This document shows, piece after piece, positions 4,372 through 18,427 of a stretch of 64,000 nt of DNA. The notes beneath the pieces were generated by a model. That model was not told where the DNA came from and made no database searches. It saw only the letters and a program-made list of their open reading frames with translations. Each line of letters starts with the position of its first letter. Position 1 is the first letter of the stretch. The stretch comes from Thermoanaerobaculia bacterium (lineage in GTDB: Bacteria; Acidobacteriota; Thermoanaerobaculia; UBA5066), in contig DATKLW010000033.1 of the NCBI GenBank assembly GCA_035542215.1, positions 15,651-79,650 of the forward strand, read 5' to 3'. The position numbers were made by a program, and so were the translations under genes.

Positions 4372-6018
4372 TCAGCGTCCGAAAAGCCGCGTCCGAAGCG
4401 CTTCGAAAAGGCCGCATCGGCGGAGCACGATCTCGCTCGGGCCCGGAGGCGGCCGAACGAGGATCGTGCCGCCCTCCGTCGTCTCGACGCGGCCCCCGCG
4501 CCCGGCGCTGACGGCGAGGAAGGGGCTCGCGAACCAGTTGACGACGAGAACGGCGTCCGGATCCGAATCGACGGCGAGGCGGATCTCCGGCACGTCCTCG
4601 AGTCCGGAGAGCGCCGCACGGGGGCTCGCCTCCCGGATCACGCAGCCCGCCGGCTCGAAGAGCGGCCGCGGCTCGGGCGGGGGCGCGCCCCGCGGCCGGA
4701 ACGCGTCGCTGTGCCGCGTGGCGGAGAGGCGCGCCGGCGTGAGGCTCGCGGCAATCTCGTCCGCCGCGATGAGCCGGGGCGGCGGCGGCCGCCCGACGCC
4801 GTACCAGACCTGGAAGAGCACGGCGGCGAGCAGCGCGGCGTGAAGTCCGCGCCTCACGGCGGCGCTCGGCGAGCTCGCGGCGAGGAGATCGATCGAGAGG
4901 CACAGGAGGACGATCGAAACCGCCGTCGAAAACGTGAGCAGACGCCACGGAAACTGGACGAACTGCAAGGGTGGCGCGAGGCGGTAGAGCGGCGCCGAGA
5001 CCGGCGACTCGAGGACGGCGTAGAGAGCCGCCGCGCCGAGCGCGAGAAACCACGCGGGGCCCGTTTCGCGGAGGCGGCTCGTCGGGAGGCGGCGGCACAC
5101 GGCGAGCGCGGCCACCGCGGCGCAGCAGACGATCGCGAGGGAGTTGAAGCCGCGCCCGATCTCGACCGAATAGCCGGCCGTGCTCGACGTCCAGCCGCCG
5201 ACGCGGTCGTACAGCATGTCCGCGAACGGCACGAAGTTCCGGAAGACGGCGAACTGCCCCGACCGGAAGACGTCGAGATCCGCGTCCGCGCCGAAGACCC
5301 GGATCCCGGCGAGGAACGGCCCCGCGACGACGGCGACGACGAGCGCGGCCTGGCCGAGCGCGGGAAGCGCCCGCGCCCGCCCCTGGCGGAACGCGAGAGC
5401 GCCCGCGAAGGCGAGGAGGACGAACCCCGACGCGAAAAGAAAGATCACGGAGTGCGCGAAGAAGAGGAGGGCGAGAACGGCGCCGAGCGCCCAGCCGGCC
5501 CGCGAACGCCCCGCGACGACGCCGAGCGCGGCGTCGAAGAGCCACGGGACGAGCATGAACGCCGCGAACTCCGCGAACGCTCCCCGGACGACCCAGTCCG
5601 TGTAGGCGTAGTTGGAGAAGACGAAAAGGAGCGCGCCGCACGTCGCCGGGAACGAAGCGAGCCCCGCGGCGCGGAGGGTCCGGCGCATTCCGAGCGCGCC
5701 GGCGAAGAGAAGGAGCAGGATCGCGGCGCGGACGCCGGCGAGCGTCGAGCCCGTCGCGAGCGCGAGGCCGCCCGCGAGGGTATTGAAGAGCCGGTGGTAG
5801 AAGAACGGGAAGGGCGAGCCATGGCCGTTCTCGGCGAGGGGCGTCCAGAGCGGGAGGAGGCTCCCTTCCGCGAACGCGCGGCGGAAGATTTCGACCCGTT
5901 GAAAGCAGGCGACGCGGTCGTGGTTCTCCGGCCAGCCGGGAAGGACGAACACGGGGGCACAGGCCGCGACGCAAGCGAGGAAAAGCAGGACGAAAGGGCC
6001 CGCGCGGCGGGGAGACAT
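4372..6018 (-). CDS. Polytopic membrane protein, probable GT-C-type glycosyltransferase (PTPS-related/YfhO-like)
   Basis: 548 aa, more than 10 predicted TM helices. N-terminal region LLPLWTPLAENGHGSPFPFFYHRLF resembles PTPS-related membrane glycosyltransferase-like proteins. It is the first of three tandem paralogous membrane genes on the minus strand. Confidence 0.55.
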   Translation of the reverse strand: MSPRRAGPFVLLFLACVAACAPVFVLPGWPENHDRVACFQRVEIFRRAFAEGSLLPLWTPLAENGHGSPFPFFYHRLFNTLAGGLALATGSTLAGVRAAILLLLFAGALGMRRTLRAAGLASFPATCGALLFVFSNYAYTDWVVRGAFAEFAAFMLVPWLFDAALGVVAGRSRAGWALGAVLALLFFAHSVIFLFASGFVLLAFAGALAFRQGRARALPALGQAALVVAVVAGPFLAGIRVFGADADLDVFRSGQFAVFRNFVPFADMLYDRVGGWTSSTAGYSVEIGRGFNSLAIVCCAAVAALAVCRRLPTSRLRETGPAWFLALGAAALYAVLESPVSAPLYRLAPPLQFVQFPWRLLTFSTAVSIVLLCLSIDLLAASSPSAAVRRGLHAALLAAVLFQVWYGVGRPPPPRLIAADEIAASLTPARLSATRHSDAFRPRGAPPPEPRPLFEPAGCVIREASPRAALSGLEDVPEIRLAVDSDPDAVLVVNWFASPFLAVSAGRGGRVETTEGGTILVRPPPGPSEIVLRRCGLFEALRTRLFGR

Positions 6019-6027
6019 CGACGAAGT

Positions 6028-7764
6028 CTAGCGAGACGGCCCGCAGCGGGCCGCGAAGACCGAACCCTCGGGCGTGCCCGGAAAGCCCAGCCTCACGGTA
6101 TACAGGCCCCGCGGCGGACGCGACGTGACGATCCAGTCGAACTCGGCGCACGCGCCCGTGTCCGGCGCCCGCATGGGAAGAAGCTCGAGCGGGCTGAGCG
6201 GCCGGGTTGCATCTACCGGAAACGCGACGAGGAAGGGAGAATCCTCCCGCGCGAGGATGCCCGGGTCGACCGCCACGCGCTGCCGCCCCACCGAGGACGC
6301 GAACGCGCCTGCGGCGGCGGCCCGCTGGCCGAAGCGCGGGGCCGTCGGGCTCAAGAGGCCCCAGCGCAGGAAACGCGTGGTGTCGCAGAGACCAGACGCG
6401 ACCACGACGACGAGAGGCAGGGCCGCTCGCGCGAGAGACGGCGGGGCGCGGAGCGCGAGAGCGTCGAGGCCGGCCGCCGCGAGAGGCAGGGCGAGCGCGA
6501 GCGCGAGGCCCGCGCGGTACCCGTTCGGAGCCTCCAGCGGAGACGACAGGACGCCTCCGGCGAGCGACCCCGCGAGGACCGCGAGGAGGAGGCCCCTCTC
6601 CCGGCTCCAGGCGGCGGCGAGACCGGCAGGAAGAAGCGCCGCGACGAACGCGTTGAACGGCGGCGTGTCCCCCTCGCCGTGGCGCGTGTTCCGGTCCCAG
6701 GCGAAGGAGAGCAGGCCGACGTAGTCCGCGGCGTTCTCCGCGACGCTCCATGCGACCTCCGACGGGCTGCCCCGGAGCCGGATGGCGGCGGCCCGTCCGC
6801 CGAGAGCGTCCGGCCGCCGGACGTACACGAGCGCGAGGAAGAGAGCCGGCAGCGCGAGCCCCGCGGCGAAGGCGCCGAACGCGCGGGCTTGGCGGCGGAG
6901 AAGGAAGGACCCGAACAGGAAGACGGCGAGCGCGCCCACCGCGGGGATCGAACCGACGTACGTGTGGAGCGAGAGGCCCGCGAGGAGTCCGCAGGCGAGA
7001 AGAGGCCCGGCTCTCCCGGAGTCCCGCGCGGCCGCGGCGCGCTCGAGAGAGAGCACGACGAGAAGGACCATCATCTGCTGGTCCCAGCCCCAGCGCGCCT
7101 GGACGAGAAGCGGAAACGCGGTCGCCGCGAAGACACCGGCGATGAGCGCGGCGCGCGGCGGGGCGAGGCGGCGAGTCAGGAGAAAGAGGGCGAGCGGGAT
7201 GAGCGCGCCGGGCAGGGCGGACAGCAGGGCGTAGGCGAGCTGGCGGTCGGGGGCCAGCACGAGAAGCACCCTCGCGACGTCCAGCATCCCGCCGAAGAGG
7301 AGGATGTTCGAGGGGCCGAACGGGGCGGGGGCGAGCGACACGGCCTCCCACGGCCACAGGAAGCGACCGGCGGAGGCCGCATCGTGGAGGGCGTGCACGC
7401 CGTCGGTCCAGGGGGCTCCGGGCAATTCGCGCCAGAACGCGCCGCGGAGGGCGACGGACAGAGCGACCACGAGAATTGCGGGGCCGAAGACACCGGCGCG
7501 GGGAGAGTCGCCGGCTGCGGGCCGCCGGAGCGCGAGGACCGGGGCGGCGAACGCGAGGGCGAGGAAGAGACCGAAGGCGACGAGCGCGAGCAACGTCGCC
7601 GCGGTGACCGGCCAGACGGAGTCGACCGGGAGGAAGTAGCCCGGCGGGTAGCCGAGAAGCCGCTGCCGGAGCCAGGCGGCGCCGGCGGCCGCCGCCGCCG
7701 CGAGCCCCAGGGCCTCGCCATGCCCCCGCGGTCTCACGGACTGCCACGAGAAGCGGCCGGCCAT
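6028..7764 (-). CDS. GT-C family membrane glycosyltransferase (ArnT/PMT_2-like, GT39/GT83)
   Basis: 578 aa, multi-TM N-terminal half with periplasmic loop motifs typical of ArnT/dolichyl-phosphate-mannose mannosyltransferase-like enzymes. Confidence 0.6.
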   Translation of the reverse strand: MAGRFSWQSVRPRGHGEALGLAAAAAAGAAWLRQRLLGYPPGYFLPVDSVWPVTAATLLALVAFGLFLALAFAAPVLALRRPAAGDSPRAGVFGPAILVVALSVALRGAFWRELPGAPWTDGVHALHDAASAGRFLWPWEAVSLAPAPFGPSNILLFGGMLDVARVLLVLAPDRQLAYALLSALPGALIPLALFLLTRRLAPPRAALIAGVFAATAFPLLVQARWGWDQQMMVLLVVLSLERAAAARDSGRAGPLLACGLLAGLSLHTYVGSIPAVGALAVFLFGSFLLRRQARAFGAFAAGLALPALFLALVYVRRPDALGGRAAAIRLRGSPSEVAWSVAENAADYVGLLSFAWDRNTRHGEGDTPPFNAFVAALLPAGLAAAWSRERGLLLAVLAGSLAGGVLSSPLEAPNGYRAGLALALALPLAAAGLDALALRAPPSLARAALPLVVVVASGLCDTTRFLRWGLLSPTAPRFGQRAAAAGAFASSVGRQRVAVDPGILAREDSPFLVAFPVDATRPLSPLELLPMRAPDTGACAEFDWIVTSRPPRGLYTVRLGFPGTPEGSVFAARCGPSR

Positions 7765-9536: not shown

Positions 9537-11174
9537 ATGACTCTCTCGCGCATCCCCTTCCATCGGCGCCTCGGCTTCAAGATCACGGCAACGGCGGCCG
9601 CGGCGATCCTCGTCCCCGTCGCGTTCGTCGCGGCGCTGACGATCCGCGCCCAGCACGAGGAGCTCGTCGCGCGGGCGCAGGGGAGCGCTTCGATCCTCTC
9701 CGAAACCGTGCGCAGCGCGACGCACGACTTCATGCTTCGGAACCAGCGCGAAGATGCGTACCGGATCGTCGAGATCGTCGGTCACGAGAGCCTCCGCAAG
9801 GACAGCTCGATCGAGAGCGTCCGGATCTTCAACAAGCGCGGCTCGACCGTGTACTCGACGGACCGGTCCGAGATCGGGCGGATCGCGGACAAGAGCGCGG
9901 GCGCGTGCGCGCCGTGTCACGGGGGGCCGGGAGCGCCCGTCACGAACCCGGATCCCGCGACGCGCAGCCGCATCACCACGGTCGGGGACCACCGCGTCCT
10001 GTCGTTCGTGACGCCGATCTACAACGAGAAGGACTGCGCGGTGGCGGGCTGCCACGCCTCCCCAAAGGACCAGCGCGTCCTCGGCCTCCTCGACGTCGCG
10101 CTCTCCCTGCGCGACGTCGACGACCGGCGCTCGGCCGCGACGTGGCGCATCGTCGGGTTGTCGCTCGTCGCGCTCGTGCTGCTCACGGCGCTCGTCTCGG
10201 CCATCGTCCGCCTTCTCGTCGTGCGGCCCGTTTCGGACATGCTCGCGGCGACGCGGGACCTCGCGGAAGGCCACACGGCCGCGCCGCTCGCGATCCGCAC
10301 CGAGGACGAGCTCGGACGGCTGGGGCATTCGTTCAACGAGATGAACGCGTCGCTCCGGCGGGCACGCGCCGAGCTGGAAGAGGCGGCGGAGAACCTCGAG
10401 CAACAGGTCGAGGACCGCACGGCCGCCCTTCAGCATGCTCAGGAGGCGCTCGTGCAATCCGAGAAGCTCGCCTCGCTCGGCACGCTGTCGGCGTCGATCG
10501 CGCACGAGATCAACAACCCGCTCGCGGGGGTCCTGACCTTCGCGCGCCTCATGTCGCGCACGCTCGAGGCCGGCGAGGTGAACGAGGACGCCCGCGCCGC
10601 GTGCCTGAAGAACCTCGGCCTCATCCAGCGCGAGACCGAGCGCTGCACGCGGATCGTGCGCAGCCTCCTCGACTTCGCGCGAGCCCGGCCGATCGAGCTC
10701 CTCTCCGTCGACGCCGTCGCGGCTCTCGAGGAGGCGCTCTCTCTCACGCAGCACAAGCTGCAGCTTCAGCAGGTCGTCCTGACCCGGGCGTTCGACGGGC
10801 CGGCCGTCGTGCGCGGCGACTTCGGCCAGCTGCGGCAGGTCTTCGTGAACCTGATCCTGAACGCGTGCGACGCGATGCCGGAGGGCGGGACGCTTGCCGT
10901 GACCTCGAAGAGGGTGGAGGACGGCCAGGCCGTGGAAATCGCGATCGCCGACACGGGCGCGGGCATCGCGCCGGAGCACCTGTCGAGGATCTTCGACCCG
11001 TTCTTCACGACGAAACCGATGGGGACGGGTCTCGGCCTCTCGGTCGTCTACGGCGTCGTGGAGAAGCACGGCGGGTCGATGAAGGTGCAGAGCCGTCGCG
11101 GCGAAGGCACGACGATGACGGTGCGGTTGCCGCTTGCCGGGAAGGCGGCGGCGCCGGCGGGCGCCGCCGTGTGA
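9537..11174 (+). CDS. Sensor histidine kinase (TM1, periplasmic domain with c-type haem motifs, TM2, HAMP, HisKA, HATPase_c)
   Basis: 545 aa. Two TM helices flank a ~155-aa periplasmic domain containing CAPCH (CXXCH) and CAVAGCH (CX4CH). Then HAMP, an H-box SIAHEINNPL and G1/G2 boxes. Confidence 0.85.
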   Translation: MTLSRIPFHRRLGFKITATAAAAILVPVAFVAALTIRAQHEELVARAQGSASILSETVRSATHDFMLRNQREDAYRIVEIVGHESLRKDSSIESVRIFNKRGSTVYSTDRSEIGRIADKSAGACAPCHGGPGAPVTNPDPATRSRITTVGDHRVLSFVTPIYNEKDCAVAGCHASPKDQRVLGLLDVALSLRDVDDRRSAATWRIVGLSLVALVLLTALVSAIVRLLVVRPVSDMLAATRDLAEGHTAAPLAIRTEDELGRLGHSFNEMNASLRRARAELEEAAENLEQQVEDRTAALQHAQEALVQSEKLASLGTLSASIAHEINNPLAGVLTFARLMSRTLEAGEVNEDARAACLKNLGLIQRETERCTRIVRSLLDFARARPIELLSVDAVAALEEALSLTQHKLQLQQVVLTRAFDGPAVVRGDFGQLRQVFVNLILNACDAMPEGGTLAVTSKRVEDGQAVEIAIADTGAGIAPEHLSRIFDPFFTTKPMGTGLGLSVVYGVVEKHGGSMKVQSRRGEGTTMTVRLPLAGKAAAPAGAAV

Positions 11175-11722
11175 GCGAGGTCCTTCTCCTGTGGATCGGG
11201 CGGACGGACTCCGCGCCGGAGATCCTCGAAGGCGTGCGGCGGAGCGTCGCGCGCGAGTTCGACCTCGCGGCCCGCGTCCGGCTCGCCCAGGAGAGGCCCG
11301 TCGCCGCGTTCGACGCGCGGCGCGGCCAGCACTCCTCCACGCGGATCCTCGCCTGGCTGCAGGACCGGCACGACGGGGCGCACCGCATCCTGGGCGTCAC
11401 GGACGCGGACCTCTTCATTCCGGTTCTGACGTTCGTCTTCGGCGAGGCACAGCTCAACGGCCGCGCGGCCGTGGTCTCGACGGCCCGCCTCGGCGACACG
11501 CCCCTGATCCCCGGAGAGGCGGCGCGGATCGCGCTGCGCCTCCAGAAGGAAGCCGTGCACGAGCTCGGTCACACGTTCGGGCTCCTGCACTGCCCCGATT
11601 CGCGCTGTGCGATGGCGCGCTCGCCGAGCCTGCGCCACGTCGACGCGAAGTCCCCCGCCCTTTGCCGCGCCTGCCGCGCCCGCAGCCGCGAACTCTCGGA
11701 AAACGGAGATCCCCATGAGTAA
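11171..11722 (+). CDS. Archaemetzincin-like zinc metalloprotease (peptidase M54 family)
   Basis: GTG start overlaps the kinase stop (GTGTGA). The motif HELGHTFGLLHCPDSRCAMA...CRAC equals HEXXHXXGXXHCX4CXM-X17-CXXC, diagnostic of archaemetzincins. The 3' end overlaps the response-regulator start by 8 nt. Confidence 0.75.
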   Translation: MSEVLLLWIGRTDSAPEILEGVRRSVAREFDLAARVRLAQERPVAAFDARRGQHSSTRILAWLQDRHDGAHRILGVTDADLFIPVLTFVFGEAQLNGRAAVVSTARLGDTPLIPGEAARIALRLQKEAVHELGHTFGLLHCPDSRCAMARSPSLRHVDAKSPALCRACRARSRELSENGDPHE

Positions 11723-13109
11723 GAAAAGCACGCGAATCCTGATCGTCGACGACGAGGAGATCATCCGGGAGTCCCTCTCGGGCTGGCTCGGCAAGGACGG
11801 CTACACGATCGGGACGGCGCCGGACGGCCTTTCCGCGCTCCGGATGATGGAAGAGGGCTCGTGGTCGATCCTCCTCGCGGACCTCAAGATGCCCGGCATC
11901 GACGGGCTCGAGCTCCTCCGGCGCGTCAAGGCGAAGTGGCCGGACACCTCGGTCCTCATCATGACGGCCTTCGCCACGGTCGACACGGCCGTGAACGCGA
12001 TGAAGTCCGGCGCGTTCGACTACGTCGTCAAGCCCTTCGACCCGGAAGAGGTCAGCCTCGTCGTCGAGAAGATCGTCGCGCAGCAGGCCCTCGTCCGCGA
12101 GAACGTGATCCTCCGGAAGGCGCTCAAGAAGGAGTACGTTTTCCACGACTTCGTCACGAAGAGTCCGGCCCTCCTCGCGACGCTCGAGCTCGCGAAGACG
12201 GCCGCCCACAGCCCGTCGACGATCCTCGTCCTTGGGGAGAGCGGCACGGGCAAGGAGGTCCTCGCGCGGGCGATCCACGCCGAGAGTCCGCGCGGCGGCA
12301 AGCCGTTCGTCGCGATGTCGTGCGCGGCGCTCACGGAGACGCTCCTCGAGTCCGAGCTCTTCGGCTACGAGAAGGGAGCCTTCACGGGCGCGAACGGCCG
12401 GCGGGAAGGGAAATTCGAAGCCGCGAGCGGAGGGACGCTGTTCCTGGACGAGATCGGCGACATCAGCGCGAAGCTCCAGCTCGACCTCCTGAGGGTCCTG
12501 GAGGAGCGCCGCGTCACGCGCGTGGGCGGCACGGAGTCGCTGCCCGTCGACGTGCGGATCATCGCGGCGACGAACCGGGACCTGAGACGCGCGGTGGAGG
12601 AAGAGCGTTTCCGGCAGGACCTCTATTACCGGCTGAACGTCATCACGATCACGCTCCTCCCGCTGCGCGAGCGCAAGGAGGACATCCCGCTTCTCGTCGA
12701 GCGCCTGCTCGAGCAGCTCGGCTCCGAGCTCAAGCGCCCCGTCGAAGGCGTCTCGCCCGAAGCGATGGCGATCCTCCTCGCGCACGCGTGGCCCGGCAAC
12801 GTCCGCGAGCTGCGCAATGTCCTCGAGCGTGCGATCGTCGTTTCGGACGCGCCGATCCTCGAGGCCCGGCACCTCGGCCTGAACCTCCAGGAGGGCGTGG
12901 GAGCGAGGCCGATGCCGGAGCATCCGGCGTCCCTCGAGGAGATCGAGCGCCAGTACATCGGGAGCGTCCTGAAACTGAGCGGCGGCAACGTCACGCAGGC
13001 GGCCCGCATCCTCGACATCGACCGGGTGACCCTCTACGCCAAAATTCGCAAGTACGGGCTGAAACGCGCAGAGGGCGGGGAGTTCGAACCCTCAACGCCG
13101 AGCCGATGA
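11715..13109 (+). CDS. Sigma54-dependent response regulator (NtrC family: REC, AAA+ sigma54 activator, HTH)
   Basis: MSKKSTRILIVDDEE...LLADLKMPG receiver; GESGTGKE Walker A; GAFTGA motif; C-terminal Fis-type HTH. Start ATG at 11715 with a GGAGA RBS. Confidence 0.9.
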   Translation: MSKKSTRILIVDDEEIIRESLSGWLGKDGYTIGTAPDGLSALRMMEEGSWSILLADLKMPGIDGLELLRRVKAKWPDTSVLIMTAFATVDTAVNAMKSGAFDYVVKPFDPEEVSLVVEKIVAQQALVRENVILRKALKKEYVFHDFVTKSPALLATLELAKTAAHSPSTILVLGESGTGKEVLARAIHAESPRGGKPFVAMSCAALTETLLESELFGYEKGAFTGANGRREGKFEAASGGTLFLDEIGDISAKLQLDLLRVLEERRVTRVGGTESLPVDVRIIAATNRDLRRAVEEERFRQDLYYRLNVITITLLPLRERKEDIPLLVERLLEQLGSELKRPVEGVSPEAMAILLAHAWPGNVRELRNVLERAIVVSDAPILEARHLGLNLQEGVGARPMPEHPASLEEIERQYIGSVLKLSGGNVTQAARILDIDRVTLYAKIRKYGLKRAEGGEFEPSTPSR

Positions 13110-13137
13110 GAATCACAATCCCCCGTAGAGAAAACGA

Positions 13138-13170
13138 ACGCGCGGACCACCGCGCGTTTTCGCTTTCTGG
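13138..13170 (+). terminator. Rho-independent terminator downstream of response regulator
   Basis: Hairpin AACGCGCGG-ACCA-CCGCGCGTT followed by TTTCGCTTTC. Confidence 0.5.
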
Positions 13171-13225: not shown

Positions 13226-13242
13226 GTGGCCTGGTCCTTGCG
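13226..13242 (+). promoter_or_regulatory. Sigma54 (-24/-12) promoter
   Basis: TGGCCTGGTCCTTGC: GG and GC separated by exactly 10 nt (TGGC-N7-TTGC), matching consensus TGGCAC-N5-TTGC. The predicted TSS is ~3-5 nt before ATG 13257. It lies directly downstream of the sigma54 activator gene. Confidence 0.6.
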
Positions 13243-13256
13243 CTACCAGAAGTGCC

Positions 13257-13508
13257 ATGTTGACCGAAACCACGACCACCTGCCCATGGCTGAAACAAGT
13301 GGTGATGCTCTACTGCGACGCCTGCCCCACCAAGAAGATGGTGCCGCGTGACCAGCTCGTGTCCCAGGGCCCTTGCCTGGCCGGCTCCTTCAAGGAGTGC
13401 GCGATGTACCGCGAGATGGCCCAGAGGCTCGGGGCCGGCGCCGACGACAGGGTTGTGAATACGGAGGCGAGCCGCGAGGCCGCTTCCGGGAGGGAGGTCC
13501 CGTCATGA
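13257..13508 (+). CDS. Small Cys-rich hypothetical protein (83 aa)
   Basis: ORF has 5 Cys (CPW...YCDAC...GPC...EC). It is the first ORF after the sigma54 promoter and would be near-leaderless. No homology recognised. Confidence 0.35.
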   Translation: MLTETTTTCPWLKQVVMLYCDACPTKKMVPRDQLVSQGPCLAGSFKECAMYREMAQRLGAGADDRVVNTEASREAASGREVPS

Positions 13509-13588
13509 TCGCCACCATCCCGCTCGCCCTTCTCGCCGTTCTGACGCTCCTTGCGCTGGCCCATCAGAGCCGGGTCCGTCCGTCCTGA
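13505..13588 (+). CDS. 27-aa hydrophobic single-TM micropeptide
   Basis: Strong SD GGGAGGGAGG 8 nt upstream of ATG; MIATIPLALLAVLTLLALAHQSRVRPS. Sits immediately 5' of the Fe-S subunit gene. Confidence 0.4.
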   Translation: MIATIPLALLAVLTLLALAHQSRVRPS

Positions 13589-13601
13589 GGAGAAGAACGC
13601 A

Positions 13602-14510
13602 ATGACTCTCAACCGCCGCAACCTGTTCAGGATCGCCGGCGCTGCGGGCGCGGCCACGGTCGCGGGCCGTGCGCTTTCGTCGGCGATGACACCGGGCGCC
13701 CCAAAGACCACCGCCAATGCGGTCCTGGTGGACACGACGCGCTGCGTCGGCTGTCGCGCCTGCGAGGCCGCCTGCTCCGAGGCAAACCAGCTCGCCGAGC
13801 CCGAGAAGCCCGGCGACGCCGCCGTGTTCGCGTCGCGCCGCCGGACGGGCCCCACGAGCTTCACGGTCGTGAACAAGTCGACCGAGAAGAGCCCGAATGG
13901 AGAGGACCGCTACGCGAAGATGCAGTGCATGCACTGCGTGTCGCCCGCGTGCGCGTCCGGCTGCGTCGTCGGAGCGCTCGAGAAGACGCCGGCGGGCCCG
14001 GTCGTCTACCACGCGGGCCAGTGCATCGGCTGCCGGTACTGCATGATCGCGTGCCCGTTCTCGGTCCCGAAATACGAATACGCGAAGGCCGCCCCGCTCG
14101 TGAAGAAGTGCACCTTCTGCGCCGAGCGCCAGGGCCAGGGCCTTCCGCCCGCGTGCACGGAGGCCTGCCCTTCGGGCGCGCTCCTGTTCGGCAAGCGGGC
14201 CGACCTCCTCGAGGAAGCGAGGACCCGCATCTACCAGAACCCGACGCGGTACACGCACGAGATCTACGGCGAGGACGAAGCCGGGGGAACGAGCTGGCTC
14301 TACCTCTCGGACGTCCCGTTCACGAGCCTCGCCCTCCCCGGCGAAATCGAGAAGAGGTCGTACCCGGAGCTCGCGGAAGGCGCGCTCTCGGCGGTCCCCC
14401 TCGTCGCGACCCTGTGGCCGCCCCTCCTCATGGGCCTCTACACCTTCAGCAAGCGGCGCCACGACGTCGCGGAAGAAGGAAACGGGCGCAAAGGAGACGG
14501 TCATGAGTAA
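13602..14510 (+). CDS. Tat-exported 4Fe-4S ferredoxin-type electron-transfer subunit (HybA/NrfC/DsrO-like) with C-terminal TM anchor
   Basis: Twin-arginine signal MTLNRRNLFRIAGAAGAATVAG. Four Cys clusters CVGCRACEAAC, CMHCVSPACASGC, CIGCRYCMIACP and CTFCAERQ...CTEACP. C-terminal hydrophobic helix; RBS GAGGAGAAG. Confidence 0.85.
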   Translation: MTLNRRNLFRIAGAAGAATVAGRALSSAMTPGAPKTTANAVLVDTTRCVGCRACEAACSEANQLAEPEKPGDAAVFASRRRTGPTSFTVVNKSTEKSPNGEDRYAKMQCMHCVSPACASGCVVGALEKTPAGPVVYHAGQCIGCRYCMIACPFSVPKYEYAKAAPLVKKCTFCAERQGQGLPPACTEACPSGALLFGKRADLLEEARTRIYQNPTRYTHEIYGEDEAGGTSWLYLSDVPFTSLALPGEIEKRSYPELAEGALSAVPLVATLWPPLLMGLYTFSKRRHDVAEEGNGRKGDGHE

Positions 14511-15747
14511 CGTGATGAGCGACGGCCTGAACCGCCCGGTCCCCTTCCCCGCGTTCGTTCTGGACAAGATCTGCCTCGGAATGCCCGCGAAGACCTACGC
14601 GAAGAGCCTCCTGACGAAGACGAACGCGATCTACGCCGCCATCCTCGCGATCGGCCTCCCCACTCTCGCCTACCGCTACTGGAAGGGAATGGGCGCCGTG
14701 AGCAACCTCTCCCAGACGAACCCGTGGGGCATCTGGGTCGGCATCAACATCATCTGCGGCATCGCGCTCGCGGCCGGCGGCTACACGGTGGCCGCGACCG
14801 TCTACGTCTTCGGCCTCGAGCAGTACCGGCCGATCCTGAGGCCCGCGATCCTGACGGGGTTCCTCGGCTACGTCTGCGCGATCAGCGGCCTCATCGTCGA
14901 GCTCGGCCAGCCGTGGCGGCTTCCCTACCAGCTCTTCCTGACGCCGGGCACGACCGCCGTCATGTTCGAAGTCGGCATGTGCGCGTTCGCCTACCTGATC
15001 GTCCTCGGTCTCGAGATGCTTCCCGCGGGACTCGAGTGGCTCGGACTCGCCCGCGCCCGCCGCATCATGGGAACGCTCACGATCGGGATCGTCGTCCTCG
15101 GCATCACGCTCTCGACGCTCCACCAGGCCTCGCTCGGCGCCTTCTTCCTCATGGTGCCGGGCAAGCTCCACCCGCTCTGGTACTCGCCGTATCTCCACGT
15201 CTTCTTCTTCATCTCCTCGATCTCCGCGGGAATCGGGATGATCATCTTCGAGAGCACGGTCTCGCGCCGCGCGTTCCGCGACGAGCTCGACCCCGAGGCG
15301 CCCGTCGACCTCGACGCGCTGCAGCTCGGCCTCGCCAAGGGCGGCGCGGTCGTCCTCTTCGCGACCTTCTTCATCCGCCTCCAGGGCCTCGTCGTCTCCG
15401 GGCGGTGGGACCTCCTGTTCACGGGCTGGGGCGCCTGGTTCGCGCTCGAGCTCGTCGGCTTCATCCTCTTGCCGTCGCTCCTCTTCGCGTTCGCCGTCCG
15501 CACGCAGAGCGTCACGCTCACGCGCGCGGCCGCCGTCATGGCGGTTCTCGGCGTCGTCCTGAACCGCATCAACGTGTCCCTCATCGCCTACAACTGGAAC
15601 GTCCCCGCCTCGGACCGGTACGTCCCGTCGATGGGCGAGATCGTCCTCACGATCCTGCTCCTCACGTGCGGCGTTCTCGCCTTCCGCTGGATCGTCAACC
15701 GCATGCCCGTCCTTCGCGAGCATCCGGATTGGCGCGGCAGCCACTGA
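14503..15747 (+). CDS. NrfD/PsrC/HybB/DsrP-family polytopic membrane quinone-interacting subunit
   Basis: 414 aa, ~10 TM helices, NrfD-family sequence character. Start overlaps the Fe-S gene stop (ATGAGTAA). Confidence 0.85.
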   Translation: MSNVMSDGLNRPVPFPAFVLDKICLGMPAKTYAKSLLTKTNAIYAAILAIGLPTLAYRYWKGMGAVSNLSQTNPWGIWVGINIICGIALAAGGYTVAATVYVFGLEQYRPILRPAILTGFLGYVCAISGLIVELGQPWRLPYQLFLTPGTTAVMFEVGMCAFAYLIVLGLEMLPAGLEWLGLARARRIMGTLTIGIVVLGITLSTLHQASLGAFFLMVPGKLHPLWYSPYLHVFFFISSISAGIGMIIFESTVSRRAFRDELDPEAPVDLDALQLGLAKGGAVVLFATFFIRLQGLVVSGRWDLLFTGWGAWFALELVGFILLPSLLFAFAVRTQSVTLTRAAAVMAVLGVVLNRINVSLIAYNWNVPASDRYVPSMGEIVLTILLLTCGVLAFRWIVNRMPVLREHPDWRGSH

Positions 15748-15763
15748 GAAGAAAGAGAAGAAC

Positions 15764-16429
15764 ATGCACGCGAACGACCTCCTCAGCCCGCACGCAACCA
15801 AGGCCATCGAGTACGTGCTCGCGGTCTCGTATCTCCTGCTCTTCATCCCCTTCTGGCGCTTCGTGAACGGCGCCACCGCCGCGGAGTCCCTCGCGTTCTC
15901 GTGGTTCCAGGTCCCGGCGAACGTCCACCTGCACCGCGGCCACTCCTGGGCGAAGACGTTCGGGGGCGCGGTGGCGGTCGGTCTCGACGACTTCGCGCAC
16001 AAGATGATCGGCCCGCTCGATTCCGTCCAGTTCCCCGCGGTCGGCTCCGCCCTCCGGCAGGGGCAGAAGGCCTTCTCGGTCGTCGCGGACGGCAAGTCCT
16101 TCGACGTCCTCTCACCGGTCGACGGCAACGTCGTCGCGCTGAACGAATTCGTCCGCGCCCATCCGTCCGACGCGGTCCGCGACCCTTACGGCACGGGCTG
16201 GCTTCTCAAGGTCGAGCCCCGCTGGCTCACGGCAAACCTCAAGAACCTCGTCTCCGGCGACGGGGCCCGCCGCTTCCTCGACGCGGCCGCCCAGGTGCTC
16301 GCCGGCCGCATGAGCCCCGAGCTCGGCATCGTCCTCCAGGATGGCGGCACGCCGGTTCACGGAATCGCCCGCGAGATCGACCCCGCGAACTGGGACTCTC
16401 TGGTCCGGACGTCTCTCAAGGGCGAGTGA
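15764..16429 (+). CDS. Membrane-anchored glycine-cleavage H-protein-like (lipoyl-carrier fold) protein, lipoyl-Lys position conserved
   Basis: N-terminal TM helix. Soluble domain aligns with E. coli GcvH: HSW (HEW), AVGLDDFA (VGITEHA), ADGKSFDVLSPVDGNVVALN ([21 protein letters not shown]; K aligned) and DPYGTGWLLKVEP (EPYAGGWIFKIK). Confidence 0.7.
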   Translation: MHANDLLSPHATKAIEYVLAVSYLLLFIPFWRFVNGATAAESLAFSWFQVPANVHLHRGHSWAKTFGGAVAVGLDDFAHKMIGPLDSVQFPAVGSALRQGQKAFSVVADGKSFDVLSPVDGNVVALNEFVRAHPSDAVRDPYGTGWLLKVEPRWLTANLKNLVSGDGARRFLDAAAQVLAGRMSPELGIVLQDGGTPVHGIAREIDPANWDSLVRTSLKGE

Positions 16430-16439
16430 GGAGTCCGCG

Positions 16440-16790
16440 ATGAACACACGCCTCCGCTTCCTCGCGGCGACTTTCCTCCTCTCCCTTTCCGCGACGCTGC
16501 TCGCGGGGGCGCTCCCGAACCTCCCGAAGGACATCGCGTTCCCCCAGGGCGACGGCAGCCCGGGAGTCGTGATCTTCCGGCACGAAGATCACATCGATGC
16601 CTCGCAGCCGGACTGCACGATCTGCCACCCGAAACTCTTCTCCATCGTCAAACGCACCGCCTCTTCGGCCGCCCCCGCCGCGATCCGCCACGCCGAGATG
16701 GAAAAGGGCAAGAGCTGTGGCTCCTGCCACGACGGCAAGACCGCTCACGGGCTCTGGGACGACTGCGGAACGTGCCACAAGGCAAGGTGA
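16440..16790 (+). CDS. Trihaem c-type cytochrome, cytochrome c7 (PpcA)-like
   Basis: Signal peptide plus three CXXCH (CTICH, CGSCH, CGTCH). FRHEDHIDASQPDCTICH parallels PpcA FPHKAHQKAVPDCKKCH. Confidence 0.8.
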   Translation: MNTRLRFLAATFLLSLSATLLAGALPNLPKDIAFPQGDGSPGVVIFRHEDHIDASQPDCTICHPKLFSIVKRTASSAAPAAIRHAEMEKGKSCGSCHDGKTAHGLWDDCGTCHKAR

Positions 16791-16798
16791 GGTGACCC

Positions 16799-17497
16799 AT
16801 GACGCCTCTCGAATTCCTCCAGCTCGCCGGCATCTTCCTCGCGGGCCTCGTCGTACGGCTCCTCGCGTTCCTGCTCGTGCTCGCGGTCTGCACGCTGCCG
16901 ATCATCGCCGTCTGGGCGTTGTGGACCGCGTGGCAGAAGCTCCGTGACCGGCGCATCGGCCTCGTCGACCTCGCCGGGCTCGAGCTCGCCGAGGCGCACC
17001 ATTACGCGCCGGGCCACACGTGGCTCGCGCGCAAGGGCCGCGGCACCGTCCGCGTCGGACTCGACGAGATCGCGGGGCGGCTCCTCCACGCGCCCACGAG
17101 CGTCTCGCTCCCGCGGCCGGGAACCGTCCTCGCCGCCGGCCTCCCCGCCGCGACCGTGAACTGCGGCGGCCGCTCGGCCTCGATCACGGCTCCGGTGTCG
17201 GGCACCGTCGTCGCGATCAACCAGGCGGTCCAGCGCGATCCCTCGATCCTCGAGGACTCGCGCTACCGGAACGGCTGGCTCTTCTCGATGAAGCCCGCGA
17301 CGGCCTCGTTCCTCACGCTTCCGACGGGACCCGCCGCGCGCGCGTGGTTCCGGGACGAGACGGCGCGCTTCTCGCACGCGCTCGAGACCGAGCTCGGCCT
17401 CCTCGCTGCCGACGGCGGAGAGCTCGTCGTCGAGGCGCCCGCTCTCCTCTCCGAGGAGAAGTGGCAGCACCTCGTCGGGGAGTTCCTGAAGGGCTGA
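16799..17497 (+). CDS. Membrane-anchored GcvH-like protein (two N-terminal TM helices), lipoyl-Lys replaced by Gly
   Basis: GHTWLARKGRGTVRVGLDEIAG and DSRYRNGWLFSMKP match the GcvH fold. The position of the lipoyl-Lys aligns to NCGGRSASITAPVSG, with no Lys. Confidence 0.65.
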   Translation: MTPLEFLQLAGIFLAGLVVRLLAFLLVLAVCTLPIIAVWALWTAWQKLRDRRIGLVDLAGLELAEAHHYAPGHTWLARKGRGTVRVGLDEIAGRLLHAPTSVSLPRPGTVLAAGLPAATVNCGGRSASITAPVSGTVVAINQAVQRDPSILEDSRYRNGWLFSMKPATASFLTLPTGPAARAWFRDETARFSHALETELGLLAADGGELVVEAPALLSEEKWQHLVGEFLKG

Positions 17498-17520: not shown

Positions 17521-17553
17521 GCGCGGGGCGGTTCGTCCGCCCCGCGTTTTCGT
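17521..17553. terminator. Bidirectional Rho-independent terminator between convergent genes
   Basis: GCGGGGCGG-TTCG-TCCGCCCCGC hairpin followed by GTTTTCG; A-rich on the opposite strand. Confidence 0.55.
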
Positions 17554-17562
17554 CTCAGAGGG

Positions 17563-18018
17563 TCAGCGCTTGCCGAAGAGCTTGTCGAAAGCGGACCGGG
17601 CGCCGTCGGGCGTGTCCGCGGCTTTCGCGCCGGTCAGGTCCATGCTCACGACGGGCGCATAGAGCGCGCATTCGTTCGCCTTCGACTTTGCGGCGATCGG
17701 CGCCGGGATCGGCTGGCGGCACTGCCAGCGCGCGGCCCCGTCGAAGTGGCGGCACTGGCTGCAGGCGTGGAGGGCGGCGCCGCACTTGCGGCACGCCGAG
17801 CCGATCGCCACCTCGGCGTCGTTCTTTTCGCCGCAGACCTTGCACCGGAAGACCTCGTCGCGGTGGGGGTCGGCCCCGCGGCCGCGGGGAGCGCCCTCCA
17901 GACGAGCCGGGCGGTCGGGAAAGAAGCCGCCGCCCCCGCCGGACGTTCCCGTGCCGCCGGTCCGGGCGCCGTCCTGATAGCCCTTCGAGCGGTACTTGCG
18001 ATCCGACATCTGCGTCAT
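17563..18018 (-). CDS. Hypothetical Cys-rich (double zinc-ribbon-like) protein
   Basis: 151 aa MTQMSDRKYRSKGYQ...CKVCGEK...CRKCG...CSQCRH...C. Only the C-terminal 151 aa of the 408-aa track ORF is plausible. Confidence 0.5.
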   Translation of the reverse strand: MTQMSDRKYRSKGYQDGARTGGTGTSGGGGGFFPDRPARLEGAPRGRGADPHRDEVFRCKVCGEKNDAEVAIGSACRKCGAALHACSQCRHFDGAARWQCRQPIPAPIAAKSKANECALYAPVVSMDLTGAKAADTPDGARSAFDKLFGKR

Positions 18019-18064
18019 TCTACGGTCCGCGGCCGGGGCCGTAGAATGCCGCCCGGGGACTGAC

Positions 18065-18427
18065 ATGAGATTTCTCCTCCGGATCCTCGTGAACGCGGCG
18101 GCCCTGTGGGTCGCGGCGTCGTTCGTGAGCGGCATCCACGCGGGCGGCCCCGGGTCCATCCTCGCGGTCGCCGTCGTCTTCGGCCTCGTGAACGCGTTCG
18201 TCCGTCCCCTGCTGAAACTCCTGAGCTGTCCCGTCATCCTCCTGACGCTCGGCCTCTTCACGCTCGTCATCAACGCCCTCATGCTCATGCTCACGGCGTG
18301 GGTCGGAGCCCAGTTCGGGATCGACTTCAAGGTGGCCGGGTTCTGGCCGGCGGCCTTCCTCGGCGCCTTGATCGTCTCCATCGTCTCGACGGTCCTGTCC
18401 TGGCTCATTCCGGACACGGCCTCCTGA
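18065..18427 (+). CDS. Phage-holin-4_2/DUF360-family small membrane protein
   Basis: MRFLLRILVNAAALWVAASFV...FVRPLLKLLSCPVILLTLGLFTLVINALMLMLTAWV; four TM helices, typical of this family. Confidence 0.6.
   Translation: MRFLLRILVNAAALWVAASFVSGIHAGGPGSILAVAVVFGLVNAFVRPLLKLLSCPVILLTLGLFTLVINALMLMLTAWVGAQFGIDFKVAGFWPAAFLGALIVSIVSTVLSWLIPDTAS

Follow-up and report, generated by a model that had tools for sequence, protein, structure and literature searches.

What is the function of an operon in which two membrane-tethered relatives of the H protein of the glycine cleavage system (GcvH) are encoded among the subunits of a quinone-linked redox complex? The operon consists of seven plus-strand open reading frames (ORFs) between positions 13257 and 17497 of a 64-kb stretch of a Thermoanaerobaculia genome (contig DATKLW010000033.1), which is called the window here. 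A first-pass annotation made from the sequence alone had proposed that it encodes a DsrJOP-like module exchanging electrons between the quinone pool and a lipoyl or dithiol cofactor. The reading that we favor, and that we consider moderately probable as a whole, is that of a sigma54-induced cytochrome c:menaquinone oxidoreductase of the Nhc/Hmc type, facing the periplasm and combined with a new cytoplasmic accessory module. We infer the physical assembly of this complex, its topology, the path and direction of the electrons, and the role of the cytoplasmic module. The electron-transfer core appears to be a variant of known systems, and the accessory and regulatory system around that core appears to be undescribed.

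Organization and recurrence of the operon

The sequence and the ORF listing show seven tightly packed genes with intergenic gaps of 13, 16, 10, and 8 nt and overlaps at the other junctions. The first gene, orf1 (13257 to 13508, + strand, as for the six others), encodes a Cys-rich protein of 83 residues that is predicted to be cytoplasmic. Its stop codon is overlapped (ATGA) by the start codon of orf2 (13505 to 13588), which encodes a hydrophobic peptide of 27 residues comprising a single transmembrane segment and a basic C terminus. The third gene (13602 to 14510) specifies an Fe-S protein of 302 residues with a twin-arginine translocation (Tat) motif (RRNLF), 16 Cys residues in four cluster motifs, and a C-terminal transmembrane anchor. 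It is overlapped by 8 nt by the gene for an NrfD-like integral membrane subunit (14503 to 15747; 414 residues; PF03916). The next gene encodes GcvH-like A (GcvA; 15764 to 16429; 221 residues), which contains an N-terminal transmembrane helix, an H-protein-fold domain, and a C-terminal extension in which a DGG is invariant. It is followed by the gene for a periplasmic triheme cytochrome c7 (16440 to 16790; 116 residues), with a Sec signal peptide and three CXXCH motifs, and by that for GcvH-like B (GcvB; 16799 to 17497; 232 residues), which combines a long N-terminal hydrophobic helix harboring an invariant R20 with an H-protein-fold domain and a C-terminal helical extension. The operon is closed by a strong intrinsic terminator (17521 to 17547, + strand), in which an 11-bp stem containing 10 GC pairs precedes a T-run.

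The first-pass annotation had placed the seven packed genes behind a sigma54 promoter, and all seven were found at the positions that it gave. The candidate -24/-12 element, TGGCCTGGTCCTTGC (13227 to 13241, + strand), matches TGGC-N7-TTGC, which fits the GG-N10-GC layout of such elements, and is the sole match of this kind in the 64-kb window. Since 0.81 matches are expected by chance, the lone match is not significant, and the promoter claim must therefore rest on comparative evidence. In 52 of 53 related loci, the stretch separating the operon from the regulator contained an element agreeing with at least 8 of the 11 consensus positions. It was located 20 to 60 nt upstream of orf1 in most of them and further away in four; one locus had none. 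The gene for a sigma54 activator ends 120 nt upstream, and the regulatory operon to which it belongs is closed by a hairpin terminator with sites on both strands (13137 to 13158, T-run visible). Thus, the conserved position of the element and the adjacent activator gene predict that expression of the operon is sigma54 dependent.

The gene order, for which the first-pass annotation had called for a synteny check, recurs in other genomes. In a collection of 5.8 billion proteins, GcvB had 158 relatives with E values of ≤1e-3, all of about 230 residues, and those with names originated from Thermoanaerobaculia, Anaeromyxobacter, and one metagenome-assembled genome (MAG) labeled Bacteroidales. Three distant carriers (about 42% identity) displayed the same order, i.e., genes for a kinase, an archaemetzincin-like protease (M54), the activator, a small protein, the Fe-S protein, the NrfD-like subunit, a GcvH-like protein, c7, and a second GcvH-like protein. 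A scan of one genome per species, with gene content scored by a tblastn panel, returned 80 loci, all from Acidobacteriota (Thermoanaerobaculia, Holophagales, and Vicinamibacterales) or Anaeromyxobacteraceae; a cultured carrier is Anaeromyxobacter terrae SG22 (locus L076). The full gene set was present in 46 of the 80 species-level loci and in 39 of the 55 with complete flanks, and genes for the Fe-S protein, the NrfD-like subunit, GcvA, and GcvB occurred together in 56 of the 80. Judged by gene content, recurrence of the full set in two phyla is far beyond chance. A hydrophobic peptide of 24 to 29 residues starting at the orf1 stop codon was encoded by 41 of 45 distinct assessable loci, and we regard the micro-ORF orf2 as real.

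GcvH-like genes also occur in other arrangements. An Acidobacteria contig (L020, 1 to 5785) carries the kinase, M54, and activator genes followed by orf1 and genes for GcvB, GcvA, and GcvB, uninterrupted by Fe-S, NrfD, or c7 genes; because this is a short MAG contig, the arrangement may result from a rearrangement or an assembly artifact. Anaeromyxobacteraceae possess extra stand-alone GcvA-GcvB pairs (L041, L044, L062, L063, L065, L068, L072, and L081, at about 5900 to 7700). Most of these pairs adjoin kinase and regulator genes on the opposite strand, none has an NrfD gene nearby, and a rubrerythrin-like gene is located downstream of the pair in L041. In the five pairs that were examined (L041, L044, L062, L068, and L081), a sigma54-type promoter lies ahead of the genes, accompanied in L041, L044, and L062 by a transmembrane peptide similar to that encoded by orf2.

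Stand-alone pairs and single GcvB genes located away from NrfD genes fit the view that the GcvH-like genes are unrelated passengers beside an Nhc-like operon. This view is scarcely credible, since the GcvH-like genes of the operon are interleaved with those for NrfD and c7 at a spacing of 8 to 16 nt, behind one promoter and ahead of one terminator, and since the co-occurrence survives several gene orders, G+C contents of 0.36 to 0.69, and two kinds of NrfD complex.

Affiliation of the membrane core

The standard connection of periplasmic redox enzymes to the quinone pool is a module of the NrfD type. The five core proteins of the operon all scored above the curated Pfam cutoffs (Fer4_11, 5e-18; NrfD, 2e-14; GCV_H, 4e-16 and 1e-18; Cytochrome_C7, 6e-15), so that the domain identities given by the first-pass annotation withstood the Pfam and NCBIfam profile searches. 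The assignment of the module to a DsrJOP-like family did not. The best NCBIfam model for the Fe-S protein was HmcB (353 bits over 290 residues; cutoff, 420), with HybA at 236 bits, and the best model for the NrfD-like subunit was HmcC (477 bits over 374 residues; cutoff, 550), with HybB at 244 bits. In comparison, the Fe-S protein scored 98.8 bits against DsrO (cutoff, 200), DsrP and DsrJ gave no match among the NCBIfam hits of the operon proteins, and DsrM and DsrK were absent. By profile scores, the Fe-S/NrfD pair is thus a relative of the Hmc/Nhc family and not of DsrOP or DsrJOP. We did not file the module as Nhc or Hmc proper because its scores lie below the equivalog cutoffs and its cytochrome is different. 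The proposed lack of HdrDE- or DsrMK-like partners and of a molybdopterin subunit was borne out, as none was found by the Pfam and NCBIfam searches or among the window genes, most of them judged by N-terminal sequence. The Tat motif of the Fe-S protein is kept in nearly all of its relatives, and its best solved relative is FdnH (1e-36); a sequence search of the PDB with the NrfD-like subunit returned no relative.

The cytochrome consists of a c7 domain of about 70 residues with the heme motifs CTICH, CGSCH, and CGTCH. It passed the PF14522 (55.3 bits; cutoff, 24.8) and TIGR04257 (69.1 bits; cutoff, 40) models and fell below the cutoff of the Geobacter-specific c7 equivalog NF043011 (17.5 bits versus 120). 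All three CXXCH motifs were retained in 58 of 60 cytochrome homologues. The operon does not encode a large multiheme cytochrome such as the 16-heme HmcA or the 9-heme NhcA (HmcA model, E value of 0.26), and no ORF for an HmcE-type cytochrome b or an HmcF-type CCG-domain protein was found in or beside it. The N-terminal transmembrane segment of GcvA weakly matched the HmcD model (E value of 0.034), as did those of 5 of 21 homologues (best E value, 0.0032), all below the cutoff.

Comparison with characterized systems places the core close to the Nhc and Hmc complexes of Desulfovibrio, which likewise combine a c-type cytochrome located in the periplasm with a 4x[4Fe-4S] subunit exported by Tat, an NrfD-like subunit devoid of cofactors, and small subunits with a single transmembrane segment. 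It differs from them by a three-heme c7 in place of a 9- or 16-heme cytochrome, by the lack of HmcE and HmcF, by small transmembrane subunits carrying GcvH-fold domains that are predicted to be cytoplasmic, and by the addition of a four-Cys protein, of a sigma54 promoter, and of a cassette that includes an archaemetzincin; its hosts are Acidobacteriota and Anaeromyxobacteraceae rather than sulfate reducers. A review of NrfD-like subunits describes NhcABCD as a cytochrome, a 4x[4Fe-4S] protein, an NrfD-like subunit, and a small NhcD and reports NhcC-type genes in two Acidobacteria, with no mention of H-protein-like subunits. According to the same review, NrfD-type subunits carry no redox cofactor, and the coupling of such modules to ion movement is still debated. 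With DsrMKJOP, the operon shares the trio of triheme cytochrome, Fe-S protein, and NrfD-like subunit on the periplasmic and membrane side but has no DsrM or DsrK and no match to DsrP or DsrJ; nor does the substrate logic of DsrC apply, because nothing carries electrons across the membrane. Like QrcABCD, the operon associates a periplasmic cytochrome with an Fe-S and NrfD-type module acting on menaquinone, but it lacks a QrcB-like subunit of the molybdopterin fold and scores low against QrcC (65.7 bits; cutoff, 400), QrcD (74.5; 570), and QrcA (23; 180).

The Cbc systems of Geobacter offer a functional parallel. Cbc4 (CbcSTU) combines a membrane cytochrome c with a 4x[4Fe-4S] protein and with an integral membrane subunit from which electrons pass to triheme cytochromes of the PpcA type, and CbcBA is induced at low redox potential via the sigma54-dependent regulator BccR. 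The likeness lies in the PpcA/c7-type triheme cytochrome and in a sigma54-dependent quinone:cytochrome oxidoreductase. Unlike the subunits of our operon, CbcS is a tetraheme protein of the NapC/NirT type and CbcB is a diheme cytochrome b, and GcvH-like, four-Cys, and archaemetzincin components are found here and not in the Cbc systems as published. Among 8 million open-access papers and preprints, we found none combining H-protein-like proteins with NrfD-type complexes, in keeping with the first-pass annotation, to which no described complex of this kind was known, and none combining an archaemetzincin with a sigma54 system.

In the reading that we favor, electrons would move from the periplasmic triheme c7 through the four [4Fe-4S] clusters of the HmcB-like subunit to a quinone site on the NrfD-like subunit, a path based on what is known of Nhc, Hmc, Qrc, and Hyd-2. 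The homologue alignment of the NrfD-like subunit contains many invariant charged residues, and these residues might couple quinone chemistry to the uptake or translocation of protons. The same alignment contains a single conserved Cys and no conserved Cys pair; a thiol:quinone mechanism of the DsbB/VKOR type involving NrfD cysteines was accordingly discarded. By analogy with the Cbc systems, with their PpcA-type partners and the sigma54 precedent of CbcBA, oxidation of menaquinol toward periplasmic cytochromes at low potential is a plausible direction. The cofactor-less H-protein domains of the GcvH-like pair would most likely cap the NrfD-like subunit on its N-side, in a docking or regulatory role, and hold the four-Cys protein at this ion-translocating membrane subunit; neither these proteins nor the 27-residue transmembrane peptide would be electron carriers of the lipoyl type.

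Fold, cofactor site, and membrane side of the GcvH-like proteins

The two GcvH-like proteins scored 59.6 and 67.7 bits against PF01597 (cutoff, 22.2), and a profile of 26 B-type sequences aligned without gaps with the E. coli H protein (9e-26). The AlphaFold2 (AF2) model of GcvB had an average pLDDT (predicted local distance difference test) of 90.9, and comparison with solved H proteins by Foldseek gave template modeling scores of 0.87 to 0.90 (normalized to the H protein) with root mean square deviations of 1.3 to 1.9 Å. The fold-determining motifs (YxxxHxW, VG-D, PxxG, and PYxxGW) are conserved. We conclude from the profiles and the model that the H-protein fold, a barrel-sandwich hybrid, is genuine in these proteins; the similarity noticed in the first-pass annotation thus survived both profile scoring (about 1e-25 against the E. 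coli H protein) and structure prediction. Scores against the full-length GcvH model TIGR00527 (55.5 and 56.6 bits) were under the cutoff of 115.85, and matches to the NCBIfam model GcvH_rel_desulf were weak (about 32 bits; cutoff, 150). The relatives are named in databases only as glycine cleavage system H protein or as hypothetical, and the fold would lead annotation pipelines astray into the former name.

The lipoyl-lysine of the H protein is not conserved. In the ungapped profile alignment, Lys64 of the E. coli protein aligns with Gly. The corresponding column contains Gly in 47 and Lys in 2 of 68 A-type sequences, and Gly in 90 and Lys in 9 of 190 B-type sequences. The next residue is Lys (22), Arg (17), Ala (10), or Gln (8) in the 68 A-type sequences and Arg in 165 of the 190 of type B, and a Cys two residues before the Lys column is present in 102 of the 190 B-type sequences. 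The GcvA protein of the window has a Lys one position past the canonical site, and its GcvB protein has a Cys two positions ahead of it. In soluble relatives whose domain is fused to a Cys-rich domain, the Lys site is occupied by Met or other residues. A shifted lipoyl-lysine in GcvA was rejected, as the position is Lys, Arg, Ala, or Gln among the homologues, and so was a redox-active Cys in the GcvB hairpin, as it occurs in only 102 of 190 sequences. With neither a Lys nor a Cys conserved and no conserved site for a swinging-arm cofactor, the GcvH-like proteins are predicted not to be lipoyl carriers.

What is conserved in the GcvH-like proteins corresponds to the fold determinants and to a helical C-terminal extension of about 55 residues, in which an (A)DGG loop and a Trp are invariant. 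The ADGG loop, between helices, is the sole low-confidence stretch of the GcvB model (pLDDT of about 53). These proteins share their fold and its determining motifs with GcvH and LbpA and differ from them by the missing lipoyl-lysine, by a membrane anchor or a four-Cys domain, and by the ADGG extension; in addition, no GcvPT, lipoate ligase, or sHdr gene lies nearby, most window genes being judged by N-terminal sequence. The N-terminal barrel-sandwich-hybrid domains of RnfC and NqrA are an example of a lipoyl/biotinyl-like fold that is devoid of a cofactor and serves as a structural element of an ion-translocating respiratory complex, on its cytoplasmic face. Matches of the GcvH-like domains to the RnfC_N, NQRA_N, and RsxC profiles were faint and far below threshold, and, unlike the proteins studied here, the RnfC and NqrA domains are parts of larger subunits that bear cofactors, in unrelated complexes.

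The partner of the GcvH-like domains can be sought in orf1. Its product contains four invariant Cys residues (C9, C20, C40, and C48). Neither orf1 nor orf2 had a match in Pfam or NCBIfam, the orf1 homologues were all annotated as hypothetical, and a PDB sequence search returned no relative for orf1 or for the Cys-rich region of a fusion protein; an AF2 model of orf1, built from a shallow alignment, had a pLDDT of 45 and no usable fold. A profile of the C-terminal extension detected 581 relatives (E values of ≤1e-3) among 1.84 billion representative proteins. These relatives include soluble fusions in which an orf1-like four-Cys domain (MKCPFLEEV..YC..P.KKMIP...C.......C) precedes the GcvH-like domain and the extension; they start with MKCPFLEE and have neither a signal peptide nor a transmembrane segment. 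The two parts are fused in P0271, P0282, P0301, L089, and L093 and are separate genes in the window and in L088. The fusions therefore argue for joint action of the orf1 product and the GcvH-like domain in the cytoplasm. A protein of 363 residues from the representative library (P0309) joins a receiver domain to an orf1-like four-Cys domain, a GcvH-like domain, and the ADGG extension, which may point to a role of the module as a signaling output. A second Cys-rich motif, C-x12-C-x5-C-x2-C (often CIW...YRLC..NYDC..CEF), precedes the GcvH-like domain in one or two copies in P0271, P0321, L094 (359 to 1147), L095 (8001 to 8828), and L096 (8001 to 8834); it had no relative in Pfam or the PDB.

The GcvH-like domains are predicted to be cytoplasmic from positive-inside charges, from the soluble fusions, and from the receiver-domain fusion. 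A cluster of basic residues such as KLRDRR comes after the hydrophobic helix of B-type proteins, and the helix of A-type proteins commonly leads into WRYVQGGRR or KK. The soluble fusions are the stronger evidence for a cytoplasmic location in comparison to these helix-flanking charges. The Fe-S protein, exported by Tat, and the cytochrome, exported by Sec, would both be on the opposite side of the membrane. Since the cofactors are periplasmic and the NrfD-type subunit carries none, nothing in the operon could, on this predicted topology, pass electrons to the GcvH-like domains.

These data bear on the proposal of the first-pass annotation that the NrfCD-type module connects the quinone pool, by electron exchange, to a lipoyl or dithiol cofactor borne by the GcvH-like proteins, in the manner of sHdr-LbpA or DsrC. 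In favor of the proposal, the H-protein fold is a true one, the Lys of GcvA and the Cys of GcvB lie close to the canonical site, and a four-Cys protein is co-encoded. The proposal is nevertheless highly improbable, given the Gly-dominated Lys column in both types, the variability of the neighboring Lys and Cys positions, the substituted Lys site of the fusion proteins, the predicted separation of cytoplasmic domains from periplasmic cofactors, and an NrfD-like subunit lacking a conserved Cys pair. Furthermore, the operon encodes no heme b, CCG, or HdrD-like subunit, no lipoate ligase, and no sHdr protein. The absence of the lipoyl-lysine and the predicted cytoplasmic placement mean that the sHdr-LbpA and DsrC paradigm is not applicable as it had been stated.

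Regulatory cassette and wider contexts of the module

In the favored reading, expression of the operon would be controlled by a sensor kinase with heme motifs, a protease of the archaemetzincin type, and a sigma54 activator, the products of three genes located immediately upstream. The histidine kinase gene (9537 to 11174, + strand) encodes HAMP, HisKA, and HATPase_c domains. Between its two transmembrane segments (within 9537 to 10250), the kinase has a periplasmic domain with the motifs CAPCH (CXXCH) and CAVAGCH (CX4CH), and equivalent CXXCH and CX3-4CH motifs were found in those kinase homologues (L004, L024, L043, and partly L028) for which the sensor domain had been recovered. This suggests that the kinase is a redox or ligand sensor carrying c-type heme. 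The kinase is syntenic in related loci and is replaced in low-G+C lineages by a cytoplasmic kinase of the PAS type. The sigma54-dependent response regulator (11715 to 13109, + strand) is composed of a receiver domain (Response_reg, 6e-30), an AAA+ sigma54-interaction domain (Sigma54_activat, 3.5e-70), and a Fis-type helix-turn-helix domain (HTH_8, 9e-14).

Between the kinase and regulator genes, which it overlaps by 4 and 8 nt, respectively, lies the gene for the archaemetzincin-like zinc metalloprotease (Peptidase_M54; 11171 to 11722, + strand), which scored 67.7 bits against PF07998 (cutoff, 24.4). To our knowledge, no link between archaemetzincins and two-component or sigma54 systems has been described. 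The motif HELGHTFGLLHC-x4-C-x-M...CxxC is readable in the translation. The pattern HELGHTFGLLHCPDSRCAM...CRAC agrees with the archaemetzincin signature HEXXHXXGXXHCX4CXM...CXXC, with a spacer one residue shorter than the X17 of the published definition (PMC3427221). According to the same paper, the biology of archaemetzincins is largely unknown, as are their substrates.

The remainder of the window encodes housekeeping functions (ribonucleotide reductase, primase and sigma70 regions, and aromatic amino acid genes) and a holin-family membrane protein. The latter, a Phage_holin_4_2-family protein with four transmembrane segments (17996 to 18427), is encoded just past the operon terminator and is not kept with the operon in related loci. 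No hydrogenase, molybdoenzyme, Hdr, glycine cleavage, or lipoate gene was seen in the window, in which most genes were judged by N-terminal sequence only.

A metagenome scan with an alignment of the fusion proteins detected relatives in 487 of 600 candidate stretches, and the counts that follow refer to those 37 of the loci it returned that were 8 kb or longer. M54 was encoded in 33 of these loci, as in most of the genome loci as well, a sigma54 activator in 29, the Fe-S and NrfD proteins together in 22, and c7 in 3. The kinase-archaemetzincin-sigma54 cassette is, by these counts, the most constant partner of the GcvH-like family. Gene order varies between lineages, and G+C content ranges from 0.36 to 0.69. 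Because the GcvH-like genes adjoin Fe-S and NrfD genes in 22 of the 37 loci in several shuffled orders, their association with NrfD-type modules is, as far as gene neighborhoods tell, real and general. L092 and L095 contain two GcvH-like genes with the Fe-S and NrfD genes and the cassette in other orders, without a separate c7 gene, and a sigma54 element lies upstream of the fusion in L092. In L095, the NrfD-like protein (10587 to 12203; 538 residues) ends in a c7-type heme domain, and the adjacent Fe-S protein has no recognizable Tat signal, unlike nearly all of its relatives. In one locus, L096 (2484 to 8834), a Qrc operon whose QrcA (207 bits; cutoff, 180) and QrcD (587; 570) pass their models and whose QrcC (345; 400) and QrcB (135; 440) are best matches below cutoffs is preceded by genes for an 88-residue transmembrane protein ending in ADGG and for a GcvH-like protein with a double four-Cys region and is followed by a gene for a Cys-rich GcvH-like protein tethered by a transmembrane segment. 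Three tandem c7-like matches were seen on the opposite strand a few kilobases upstream of Fe-S, NrfD, and GcvH-like genes in L142, L148, and L175 (at about 580 to 1900); the c7 partner may thus be encoded separately in lineages without a c7 gene in the operon.

Other loci have no membrane module of this kind. The cassette and a GcvH-like fusion occur without it in 12 of the 37 loci, and L089/L090 and L091 contain a PAS-type kinase, M54, a sigma54 activator, and the fusion alone, with a TGGCAC-N5-TTGC promoter upstream of the fusion in L089 and L091. In L093 (8001 to 11060), the cassette and fusion genes are followed by a gene for a 655-residue Proton_antipo_M protein resembling NuoL and MrpA, L088 (6825 to 9867) has a gene for a fusion-type protein beside one for a similar antiporter-like protein of about 650 residues, and in L127 antiporter-type matches after the fusion were detected by tblastn only. 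The antiporter association thus concerns three loci, all from low-G+C lineages.

Several of these observations weigh against the reading that we favor. The 12 loci devoid of the membrane module suggest that the GcvH-like module has a function of its own and is not simply an accessory subunit. With c7 present in 3 of the 37 metagenome loci, the periplasmic partner is not fixed. The HmcB and HmcC scores lie under the equivalog cutoffs, the Cys residues of orf1 could bind an Fe-S cluster and join the redox chemistry, and binding of the GcvH-like proteins to the NrfD-like subunit is a prediction from gene data.

Much of this would be accommodated if the core of the system were the kinase-archaemetzincin-sigma54 cassette together with a four-Cys/GcvH-like effector, acting as a cytoplasmic enzyme, carrier, or sensor and energized or gated by whichever proton-translocating subunit is paired with it, of the NrfD type in the operon and in Qrc loci and of the Mrp/NuoL type elsewhere, as in DabA/DabB-like pairs, with Fe-S, NrfD, and c7 as an addition in this lineage. 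M54 (33 of 37 loci) and the sigma54 regulator (29 of 37) are indeed more frequent than the Fe-S/NrfD pair (22 of 37), the minimal loci are limited to the kinase, M54, the regulator, and the fusion with its sigma54 promoter, antiporter-type genes or matches follow or adjoin the fusion in L088, L093, and L127, the receiver-domain fusion P0309 is of the expected type, and L020 combines the cassette and orf1 with three GcvH-like genes but lacks Fe-S and NrfD genes. For such an effector, neither a catalytic motif nor a cofactor site or a substrate could be identified, the antiporter link is confined to three loci, and the interleaving of the GcvH-like genes with the NrfD and c7 genes at 8- to 16-nt spacing in operons of the window type is that of subunits. 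We therefore regard this explanation as rather unlikely.

Another role for the cassette would be proteolytic, the archaemetzincin cleaving the GcvH-like proteins at the ADGG loop and thereby switching the module and the membrane complex on or off. Some sulfur-carrier proteins have a diglycine that is unmasked by metalloproteases. The invariant ADGG is located in the low-confidence loop between helices, recurs without a GcvH domain in the 88-residue transmembrane protein of the Qrc-type locus, and co-occurs almost invariably with the cytoplasmic M54 protease, a member of a family whose substrates are stated in PMC3427221 to be unknown. The residues past DGG are also well conserved, with both a Trp and a Phe invariant, as would be unusual if they were part of a propeptide to be discarded. 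In addition, the neighboring genes include none for an activating enzyme of the E1 type, and the basis of the scheme is purely co-occurrence and motif reasoning. This switch is quite improbable.

Coming back to the oxidoreductase with a cytoplasmic accessory module, a broader formulation is that the module, composed of the four-Cys domain, the unlipoylated H-protein fold, and the ADGG tail, plugs into proton-translocating subunits of two unrelated families, the NrfD type of Hmc/Nhc-like and Qrc complexes and the Mrp/NuoL type, and is nearly always wired to the kinase-archaemetzincin-sigma54 cassette. We propose this tentatively, as a possibility that is more doubtful than probable. If true, it would provide a new way of gating ion translocation or of coupling it to a cytoplasmic signal or reaction, and it would for the first time place bacterial archaemetzincins in a physiological context and might supply a substrate for them.

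Conserved cytoplasmic proteins thus accompany NrfD-type modules, including a Qrc operon, in dozens of uncultured lineages. This makes three questions testable, namely, what lies at the cytoplasmic face of NrfD-type complexes, what role an H-protein fold has in the absence of lipoate, and what purpose archaemetzincins serve. The carriers abound in soils, peat, and sediments, where the transfer of electrons from quinones to cytochromes underlies metal reduction and other anaerobic respirations.

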